Notes: a model not told the origin generated them from the sequence alone. Positions 35,495 to 37,410 are shown, numbered from the stretch's first letter. The stretch is DNA of 64,000 bases from Sandaracinobacter sp. (GCA_031425455.1 JANPJJ010000152.1:1411-65410), one strand, 5' to 3'. Numbers and translations are program-made.

Positions 35495-35636
35495 GGTTGC
35501 TGCATTGCAGCGCAACCGGGACCCCTCACTCCTCCCCGAGGCTCCCGGTTCGGTCGACCACCACCCTCCCTCCCTCCCTCGGAGGTCGACCACAATCTGG
35601 GCCAGGGTTGAGCTTGCTCCCCTGGCCCAACTTTTG
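35495..35636 (+). ncRNA. Candidate sRNA with C-rich anti-SD loops (cuckoo/CcsR- or AbcR-like)
   Basis: Hairpin 35514-35550 (loop ACTCCTCCCC), hairpin 35552-35591 (loop containing CCCTCCCTCCCTCCC), terminator-like hairpin 35598-35629 followed by ACTTTT; no credible ORF. Confidence 0.7.
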
Positions 35637-36015: not shown

Positions 36016-36681
36016 CTAAACCCGCTTTGCCTGCGGCCTCCCCGACACCGCCGTCCGCCCGGCCCAGGCCGCCCAGCCGGTCGCCAGCCCGGGTGCCAGC
36101 GCCAACTTCGCCAACTCGTCCGTCTGCGGCGGGCTCCGATACGAAGCCGCCAGCACCTCGGCGATCGTCCAGGCGCCGTCAGGCCGATGCTCGAGCACCA
36201 GGTCGTCGCCGGCCGCCATGGCGCCATCCTCGACCACGCGCAGATACCAGCCCGAGCGGCCGTTGCGGACCATGGCCTTCACCATCCGCGGATCGTCGAA
36301 CCAGCGCCCCAGCGTGGCACAGGGCTGGCGCGGCTGGCACACCTCCACCAGCGCGCTGCCGATGCGCCAGCGCTCGCCGACATGCACACTCGCTTCGTCC
36401 AGCCCCTCCACCACCAGATTCTCGCCGAAGCCGCCCGGCACCAGCTTTTCAGCATGCTGCGGATGGTCCGCCAGCCACAGCGAATAGTTGCCGACCCCAT
36501 AGGCATAGACCGCCTTCTCCGGCCCGCCATGGACCCGGGTGTTGGCGACCTCGTCGCCTTGCAGCCCCAGCATATGCGCCTGCACCGGGCCGTCGCGAGG
36601 TGCCTTGGAATAGGCGGTCAGGTAGCCCCCGATCCGGCGGGCATGCCCGGTGCGAAGCTCGATCAGGCGCGGTGTCGGCAT
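36016..36681 (-). CDS. MOSC domain protein (YiiM-like)
   Basis: GDEVANTRVHGGPEKAV, FGENL, QPRQPC, GRSGWYLRV, C-terminal 3-alpha-like tail. Confidence 0.93.
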   Translation of the reverse strand: MPTPRLIELRTGHARRIGGYLTAYSKAPRDGPVQAHMLGLQGDEVANTRVHGGPEKAVYAYGVGNYSLWLADHPQHAEKLVPGGFGENLVVEGLDEASVHVGERWRIGSALVEVCQPRQPCATLGRWFDDPRMVKAMVRNGRSGWYLRVVEDGAMAAGDDLVLEHRPDGAWTIAEVLAASYRSPPQTDELAKLALAPGLATGWAAWAGRTAVSGRPQAKRV

Positions 36682-36749
36682 GGGGCTTTCCTTTTGCGCC
36701 GGCTGTGGCATGTTCGGGGGAGTTTCAACAAGCGAAAGGAGGTGATCCA

Positions 36750-36815
36750 GTGTCTCATTGCATCCATCAACAGCAGGCGCGGATCATGTCCATCGGGTCA
36801 GCCGCCATTCGCTGA
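36750..36815 (+). CDS. Candidate 21-aa small ORF (MSHCIHQQQARIMSIGSAAIR)
   Basis: GTG start preceded by AAAGGAGGTGATCCAG (36735-36750); followed by hairpins and a terminator. Confidence 0.5.
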   Translation: MSHCIHQQQARIMSIGSAAIR

Positions 36816-36858
36816 CTGGGGGCATGGCAGCACGCTGCCGTTGCCAACTGCAATGTTC

Positions 36859-36897
36859 GGGCCGGCAGGGGATACCTTGCCGGCCCTTTCATTCTTT
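36859..36897 (+). terminator. Intrinsic terminator after the small ORF
   Basis: Stem gggccggcaggg/ccttgccggccc (one G-U), loop gata, followed by tttcattcttt. Confidence 0.7.
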
Positions 36898-36981: not shown

Positions 36982-37410
36982 ATGACACCGAACGAGCTCG
37001 ACATCCTGAAGGCAGTGGCCGGCATGGGCCTCCTGTCGCTGGTCATGTTCCTCTGGATGTATGCCACGCGGCTGCCGGCATTCCGCAAGGCCAGGCTCGA
37101 CCCGCAGGAGGCCATGCACCCGGGCTCCTACCACGATCGCATCCCCAGCGAGGTGCGGCGCGTCGCGGACAACTACAACCACCTGTTCGAAGCCCCGACC
37201 CTCTTTTACGCCATGGCGCTGATGATCGTGGTGGCCGGCCTTGCGGACCCGGTGCATGCGATGGCGGCTTACGCCTATCTCGGGCTCAGGGTGCTCCACA
37301 GCCTGGTGCAGGCGACGGTGAACAAAGTCGCGCTCCGATTCGTGCTGTTCGCGCTCAGCTGGGTTGCTCTGGGCACGATGATCGTTCGGGCAACCCTCCA
37401 ATTGTTCTGA
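36982..37410 (+). CDS. MAPEG family membrane protein
   Basis: WMYATRLP, DNYNHLFEAPTLFY, RVLHSLVQ; four TM segments; GGAGG RBS. Confidence 0.92.
   Translation: MTPNELDILKAVAGMGLLSLVMFLWMYATRLPAFRKARLDPQEAMHPGSYHDRIPSEVRRVADNYNHLFEAPTLFYAMALMIVVAGLADPVHAMAAYAYLGLRVLHSLVQATVNKVALRFVLFALSWVALGTMIVRATLQLF

Follow-up and report, generated by a model that had tools for sequence, protein, structure and literature searches.

A 64,000-nt stretch of Sandaracinobacter sp. DNA (hereafter the window) carries at 36735–36750 (+), by direct reading, the sequence AAAGGAGGTGATCCAG, an exact complement of the 3' tail of 16S rRNA, and raises the question of why so long a ribosome-binding site should stand in front of an ORF of only 21 codons. 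The preliminary description of the locus had offered a small-protein gene, a ribosome-sequestering or dual-function RNA, or a leader-peptide attenuator of the MAPEG gene further downstream, and all of the features it listed were recovered in place when the sequence was read. The 16-nt perfect complement grows to 17 nt when G36734 is included (GAAAGGAGGTGATCCAG, 36734–36750, +), its first 15 nt being near-invariant class-wide, and is preceded by an A/C-rich unpaired leader (CAACAAGC, 36726–36733, +), where position 1 of the Rfam model RF01867 aligns and of which CAACAA is kept in most class representatives. The ORF follows the complement directly (36750–36815, +; GTG at 36750, TGA at 36813–36815) and encodes MSHCIHQQQARIMSIGSAAIR. 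Its stop codon lies in the 3' arm of a hairpin, GGTCAGC...GCTGACT (36796–36817, +; minimum-free-energy fold), with compensatory hairpins at the equivalent site in relatives; a second hairpin, GGCAG-CACG-CTGCC (36826–36839, +), is evident in both sequence and fold and extends to about 36821–36845. The strong terminator that had been described is intrinsic (36859–36896, +), with a 12-bp stem at 36859–36886 (10 of 12 pairs G-C) and the U-rich tail TTTCATTCTT, and the MAPEG protein gene (36982–37410, +; Pfam E 2e-22) lies 96 nt 3' of the terminator region.

On the other side lies a divergent MOSC/YiiM-like gene (36016–36681, −), which most likely starts at the ATG at 36681 (SD AAGGAAAG, minus strand) and not at the longer ORF start at 36711, leaving about 68 nt of intergenic space up to the sORF start codon; a PEP-CTERM protein gene is also among the flanks. 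An E. coli-type consensus scan called no promoter at the locus, and the best candidate, picked by eye and held with low confidence, is CTTTCC-N17-CATGTT (36686–36714, +), with whose −35 region the MOSC ribosome-binding site overlaps. In many relatives within the class, boxes resembling CTTG..-N17-(C)ATAT were seen by eye 12–15 nt upstream of CAACAA; boxes of this type are typical housekeeping promoters of the class. The source assembly comprises 214 contigs (2.98 Mb, 67.6% G+C).

A permissive Rfam scan matched 36726–36886 (+) to RF01867 (Caulobacter sRNA CC2171) over model positions 1–159 of 159 (71.1 bits, E 6e-15), 4 bits under the curated gathering score of 75. Because the RF01867 consensus starts with cAAcaAucGAAAGGAGGUGAUCCAGUGUCUCAUuGuC and includes the block followed by GUG UCU CAU, the long complement is a hallmark of a described family and not an oddity of this genome. 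The segment CAACAA..GAAAGGAGGUGAUCC-N-start-UCU is present in the window, where 36726–36755 equals the consensus except at variable positions, and so is the P1 helix of the model (CAUuGuC/GaCaAUG), enclosing a central domain and followed by the terminator. By the RF01867 alignment and relatives, the 5' strand of P1 is CAUUGCA (36756–36762, +; codons 3–5) and its 3' strand UGCAAUG (36849–36855, +), immediately 5' of the terminator, the helix differing from the usual CAUUGUC/GACAAUG by two compensatory pairs. The layout of translated sORFs such as that of the Sinorhizobium meliloti small protein SEP1 and the Caulobacter CCNA_03965, with a start codon 1 nt past a long SD and an ORF of 18–32 codons ending before the P1 3' strand, is found here too, and the SEP1-carrying loci of S. 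medicae and S. americanum match the full RF01867 model at 35.6 and 29.9 bits, which unites CC2171, the Caulobacter coding sequence CCNA_03965 and SEP1 in one family. The locus is a new, previously unannotated member of the known CC2171 family, a small structured mRNA for very strong ribosome capture. What was already known is an sRNA family in Caulobacter and in rhizobia, and what appears to be new is the union of CC2171, CCNA_03965 and SEP1 and the addition of sphingomonad members.

CC2171 was reportedly discovered on tiling arrays in Caulobacter, and the reference for the Caulobacter crescentus sRNA is Landt et al. 2008. In Methylorubrum extorquens, CC2171 was confirmed by Northern blot, with no affecting condition identified (bioRxiv 10.1101/2022.01.24.477521). 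The supplement of Schrader et al. 2014 gives the Northern probe of CC2171_CC2172 as the R0051 probe, annotated "Translated CCNA_03965", and the CCNA_03965 CDS annotation (CCNA_R0051) was derived from ribosome profiling (PMC4117421). In S. meliloti, Hadjeras et al. 2023 described SEP1 (sORF1; 23 aa, MSNEISDLAMDMGEVKESRQPSA) on the ncRNA SMc06302 and termed it 'conserved in Rhizobiaceae'; with a translation efficiency of 29 it ranked first among 54 non-annotated sORFs (Ribo-seq about 10,000 RPKM against about 320–400 RPKM for the RNA), it was positive by Western blot and represented by 1 PSM in mass spectrometry, and the upstream sequence of its cloning primer was AAGGAAGGTGATCCA-ATG-TCT-AAT-GAG (PMC10117765). 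An exact copy of this 27-mer was present in at least 120 species of Rhizobiaceae. No statement linking CC2171, CCNA_03965 and SEP1 was found in the papers on SEP1 and Methylorubrum or in that of Schrader et al., the SEP1 and Schrader papers do not mention a long complement to the 16S tail, and no functional study of CCNA_03965, SMc06302, RF01867 or the SD-plus-start string was found in the literature accessible to search. In these homologues the ORF is occupied by ribosomes, very densely in S. meliloti, and homology to CCNA_03965 and SEP1 suggests that the window sORF is translated as well; the very high translation efficiency of SEP1 may be due in part to ribosomes held back at the start instead of to productive translation.

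The preliminary description had proposed looking across alphaproteobacterial genomes for the block followed by a short ORF. Such a search for GAAAGGAGGTGATCC-N-[A/G/T]TG (pattern GAAAGGAGGTGATCCNNTGTC, up to two mismatches, with the base before TG left free) found it in 72 of 301 genomes, mostly as a single copy, against 3 for the reversed control, and the ORF behind it had 18–32 codons in 20 of 20 representatives. Exactly one AAGGAGGTGATCNNNTG was present in 217 of 274 sampled genomes of the window's own family, the sphingomonads, and none in 126 genomes of the order's other families. Two motif matches per genome occurred in four cases (G165, G576, G694 and G674), in three of which the second has 1–2 mismatches (e.g. 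terminal C>G). When one genome was taken per alphaproteobacterial family, RF01867 matched 22 of 151 at E≤0.001; since the 75-bit cut-off passes only 5 of these 151, and the majority type of the sphingomonads and the Rhizobiaceae score 30–50 bits, the family is under-annotated.

The majority sphingomonad subtype (L014, L030–L084) reads ..CCG ATG TCT CAT GGT TCA.., has 18 codons and lies elsewhere in the genome, flanked by a divergent gene for a tlyA-like rRNA methyltransferase and by one for an ilvE-like aminotransferase, an order found in most other sphingomonads; the window subtype (..CCA GTG TCT CAT TG.., 21 codons, beside MOSC) is restricted to a few genera. In four loci from three families (L103, L107, L108 and L110, in genomes G681, G127, G657 and G056), a GAA(A/G)GGAGGTGATCC block stands 1 nt before ORFs of 55–58 aa with a signal peptide and a mature start of the form A-(E/D/G)-C (e.g. 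MSKSMKTLAVASVLMFGSAISGAALAECSTSHQ...). These lineages have either put the cassette to new use in front of secreted small proteins or lengthened the sORF, and the presence of the block at the head of such ORFs means that it may be a generic maximal ribosome-binding site and not specific to this RNA.

Because the source assembly has no assembled 16S 3' end, the 16S tail was read in four genomes of the class, two of which belong to the same family; it ends ...GCGGCTGGATCACCTCCTTTCTAAGGA in all four, as the preliminary description had assumed. Together with G36734, this tail gives the window a 17-nt complement of CUGGAUCACCUCCUUUC. Around the 6,612 GGAGG sites of the 2.98-Mb genome, the in-register match to the 17-mer is otherwise at most 12 nt, and this gap, together with class-wide retention of the block at a single locus in each genome, shows that the match is not due to chance; a chance match or an rDNA fragment was rejected on these grounds and on that of flanks that are not rRNA-like. 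Helix 45 covers 1506–1529 (E. coli numbering) in the established secondary structure of 16S rRNA, and the near-invariant block GAAAGGAGGUGAUCC faces G1529–U1542 and the next C, i.e. the entire tail past helix 45. The predicted energy of the duplex with the tail is −26.8 kcal/mol for 15 nt and −31.0 kcal/mol for 17 nt, compared with −8.7 kcal/mol for GGAGG alone. Such a duplex would stop just 1 nt short of the start codon, so that complete pairing and decoding in the P site probably do not take place together.

The exact 15-mer block was present in 49 of 76 motif matches, and the substitutions in the others were mostly A>G or C>U, by which a G.U pair with the tail is retained: five families have A12>G (GGUGGUCC), four have A2>G, three C15>U and two A4>G. 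Interior transitions that break a pair numbered four, two of them in matches of doubtful membership, and the least constrained position was the last C, adjoining helix 45 (C>G in four families). Counted as family-level events, 11 kept the pair and 2 broke it, when 6 of the 13 possible interior transitions would keep it (binomial tail about 0.005), a value that is merely suggestive because the lineages are not independent and G+C pressure runs towards A>G.

The body of the RNA is closed by P1 and reaches from codon 3 to the terminator. In an alignment of 20 relatives, P1 was 96%, a masking helix 82% and the terminator 95% paired, and 9 of the 11 terminator pairs were changed on both sides; 0 of 500 shuffles reached the observed pairing, and sliding the partner by 1–3 columns left 28–62% paired. 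All three subgroups have P1 starting from codon 3 and finishing immediately 5' of the terminator; it is formed by CAUUGUC/GACAAUG, AGUGAGAUU/AAUCUCACG and CAUGGUUCAGC/GCUGACCAUG, respectively, AAUGAG/CUCAUG being a compensated variant of the second. The masking helix joins the 3' half of the SD and the start codon to an internal CUGGAU(Y)(R)UC segment in the 20-sequence alignment. In the window, the 16S-tail mimic GGAUCAUGUCC (36781–36791, +; GGAUCAU(GUCC)) could mask 36738–36748 in this way, with a predicted −15.0 kcal/mol and in the minimum-free-energy fold; mask and P1 cross each other, which implies a pseudoknot or alternative folds.

The reading frame is itself under selection. Among the 20 class representatives, the frame set by the start codon ran for 18–32 codons (median 25), compared with 1–218 for the other two frames, and in the 20 window-type RNAs the stop codon occupied one alignment column in which TGA, TAA and TAG alternate. 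The 76 motif matches had ATG (46), GTG (24), TTG (5) or CTG (1, a doubtful match) as start codon, and all four bases occurred at the spacer position before it.

In at least 120 species of Rhizobiaceae (L113–L192, e.g. L125:175-348) the SD is fixed as the variant GGAAGG, whose pairing with 16S includes an A.C mismatch. Of 117 such loci, 100 had an internal (G/A)CCUUCCU at a fixed position 3' of the stop codon, as against 1 of 98 loci with a GGAGG SD; this element gives a perfect 9–10-bp mask of the ribosome-binding site and constitutes an independent case of masking.

From these data, we consider it probable that the element as a whole is an independent transcription unit of about 170 nt, the sphingomonad copy of CC2171, and a structured mRNA in which ribosome capture, and not the peptide, is selected; with its homologues (Caulobacter CCNA_R0051/CCNA_03965 and S. 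meliloti SMc06302/SEP1) it would be a small structured mRNA rather than a plain non-coding sRNA. The leader block is complementary to the 16S tail past helix 45, the start codon follows 1 nt on, and the ORF ends inside the body. We propose that, by forming the 15-nt duplex through their 16S rRNA, 30S subunits push the internal mask off the ribosome-binding site and stay held on the RNA while P1 opens, so that the RNA would be ribosome-loaded whenever free subunits exist; the fixed-length frame would then be translated and terminated within the structured body. Selection would keep ribosome capture and passage through this frame and not the peptide, and since it acts on the block, start, frame length, stop and helices and not on the amino acids, ribosome engagement itself may be the function. 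As to the output, we would guess at a translation-dependent change in the fold or stability of the RNA, for example a read-out of free ribosome capacity.

A more pointed version, which we put forward tentatively and regard as rather unlikely, is that selection on this single-copy gene is for pairing with the free 3' tail of 16S rRNA over its whole length, and that the RNA serves as a gauge of, or test template for, free, correctly matured 30S subunits, with the peptide a by-product. The tail mimic would shut off the ribosome-binding site up to the point at which a ribosome opened it, whereupon passage of the ribosome through the fixed-length frame would remodel the P1-closed body; on the same tentative footing, the gene would be at least as old as the split of the sampled alphaproteobacterial families that carry it. 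The main alternatives to selection for ribosome capture are a peptide effector with loose sequence needs and a direct role on the 16S tail.

Of the small-protein gene of the preliminary description, translation (in homologues) and the conservation of start, frame, length and stop stand, and purifying selection on the peptide does not, which makes a sequence-specific protein function doubtful. Across 33 distinct sphingomonad ORFs of 18 codons, summed entropy at the three codon positions was 11.4/13.8/10.4, i.e. with no excess of third-position variation, and dN/dS was about 1.2; the first five codons were invariant including their third positions, though they are rare codons for a 67% G+C genome, and peptides differed at 8 of 18 residues inside one genus. 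That the 21-aa peptide is nevertheless the functional product, with the long ribosome-binding site serving only high expression, would agree with the Western blot and single PSM of SEP1 (PMC10117765), the profiling-based annotation of CCNA_03965 (PMC4117421), the tightly conserved ORF length, a pattern MSHCH..R.S....TW[IV]V[AS] common to several families, and the real-looking secreted small proteins that the block precedes in a few families. However, the residues of this pattern coincide with RNA helices, codons 3–5 with P1 and TWIV with the CUGGAU mask, a conserved motif appears in different frames in three lineages, and no NCBIfam model matched the sORF peptides, so that, taken with the substitution pattern, we regard a peptide product as unlikely. 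The suggestion that a His/Cys/Gln-rich start senses metal or thiol status fails for the same reason, because the codons concerned (codons 3–5, CAU UGC A) form the 5' strand of P1 and co-vary with their partner; with P1 starting at codon 3, RNA structure accounts for the conservation of the N-terminal residues.

The motif in question, GGAGCAGCCUC, is shared by the MSS...EQP subgroup and occurs in other reading frames in L012, L013 and L016; we rejected it as a peptide motif on account of these three different frames, and, for Rhizobiaceae, as a mask of the SD because there it folds as a small hairpin and a separate CCUUCC masks the SD. The subgroup (L009, L011, L017, L020, L112 and Rhizobiaceae) has a conserved hairpin, GGAG-CAGC-CUCC, just 5' of the stop codon, in which an SD-like half is paired with an anti-SD-like half around a CAGC loop.

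The conserved block reaches G1529–G1530, far past the needs of initiation, its substitutions preserve pairing with the tail, the predicted 15-nt duplex is very stable and would abut the start codon, and in S. meliloti the density of ribosomes is extreme for the amount of RNA present (PMC10117765), all of which would suit an RNA that mainly binds the 16S tail and holds, titrates or tests 30S subunits (as a sponge, a hibernation factor or a template for checking a mature 3' end), with translation secondary. Against this, the moderate RNA level in S. meliloti (about 320–400 RPKM) is too low for bulk titration of ribosomes, and a start codon, frame length and stop that are all under selection imply that ribosomes actually translate the ORF; we therefore hold a role confined to tail binding to be distinctly improbable.

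A non-coding, base-pairing sRNA or sponge for CCUCC-containing RNAs, in which the ORF is incidental, is highly improbable. The family is annotated as sRNA, and many alphaproteobacterial sRNAs have CCUCC loops, including an anti-SD sRNA at 35495–35636 of the window, 1.1 kb upstream; but the ORF is conserved and translated in homologues, and conservation of the block reaches UGAUCC, which is absent from anti-SD loops. Pairing with the 35495–35636 sRNA, the sole partner tried, was predicted at −34.2 against −29.9 (sd 3.6) for shuffled leaders, i.e. within 1.2 sd, and in other genomes the two RNA genes are unlinked.

The leader-peptide attenuator of the preliminary description, by which the ORF would control terminator read-through into the MAPEG gene, is very unlikely, to the point that we dismiss it: the layout of the window would suit it (sORF, hairpins, terminator and a same-strand gene 96 nt downstream), as would the same-strand ilvE-like gene downstream in most other sphingomonads, but of the 83 further loci that were examined none had a MAPEG gene downstream, not even those of the five closest relatives, where MOSC is the sole shared neighbour, neighbours differ between groups, the downstream gene is convergent in S. 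meliloti (PMC10117765), the homologues accumulate as discrete small RNAs in Caulobacter and Methylorubrum, the unit has its own strong terminator stacked directly on P1, neither MSHCIHQQQARIMSIGSAAIR nor its homologues has a regulatory run of amino-acid codons, and no helix competing with the terminator stem appeared in the folds.

The present analysis brings three separately catalogued items, Rfam CC2171, CCNA_03965 and SEP1, into one widespread family, to which the sphingomonads are added and whose hallmark, the longest conserved complement of the 16S tail found in our analysis, sits on an ORF with a freely drifting peptide. In Alphaproteobacteria many mRNAs are leaderless or lack an SD. That one gene per genome nevertheless keeps a 15-nt SD in such a setting, which in Caulobacter includes 375 leaderless mRNAs (Schrader et al. 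2014, PMC4117421), makes it a natural probe of the usable length of the 16S tail, of the way in which ribosomes leave a very strong anchor and of whether cells monitor free ribosome capacity. In practical terms, most members of the family are missed by the Rfam cut-off, and the ORF is missed by gene callers.

Among known systems, the closest is CC2171 itself, with which the window has a full-length covariance-model match, P1 and the terminator in common; in Caulobacter it is a stand-alone small transcript whose sORF is reported as translated, but the central domain and peptide of the window are unrelated to it in sequence and the genomic neighbours differ. SEP1 of S. meliloti likewise has a long SD ending GGUGAUCC, one spacer nucleotide, a start codon and UCU, and an ORF of comparable length (about 23 codons) on a terminated small RNA (PMC10117765), whereas its SD core is GGAAGG, with one A.C mismatch to 16S and a co-varying internal CCUUCC, and its peptide (MSNEIS...RQPSA) differs from that of the window. 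In S. aureus, pairs beyond CCUCC on the start-codon side form on the ribosome and help to define the start, and G.U substitutes for A-U in these extended SD helices (PMC13009471); there, however, two extra pairs are involved in many mRNAs, whereas a CC2171-type RNA has about ten, in one gene per genome, to within 1 nt of the start codon. Among dual-function sRNAs and small mRNAs, SgrS/SgrT, RNAIII/hld, Spot 42/SpfP and rnTrpL/peTrpL are likewise short terminated RNAs, first catalogued as sRNAs, with a translated sORF aboard; unlike them, the CC2171 family has, to our knowledge, no base-pairing target and its peptide is not conserved, so we would treat membership of that class as no more than a working analogy. 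Leader peptides and uORFs with a regulatory role, in which the act of translation counts and the product does not, resemble the present element in keeping start, length and stop but not the amino acids, and in an ORF that overlaps alternative RNA helices, but here the unit has no conserved gene downstream and ends at its own strong terminator.
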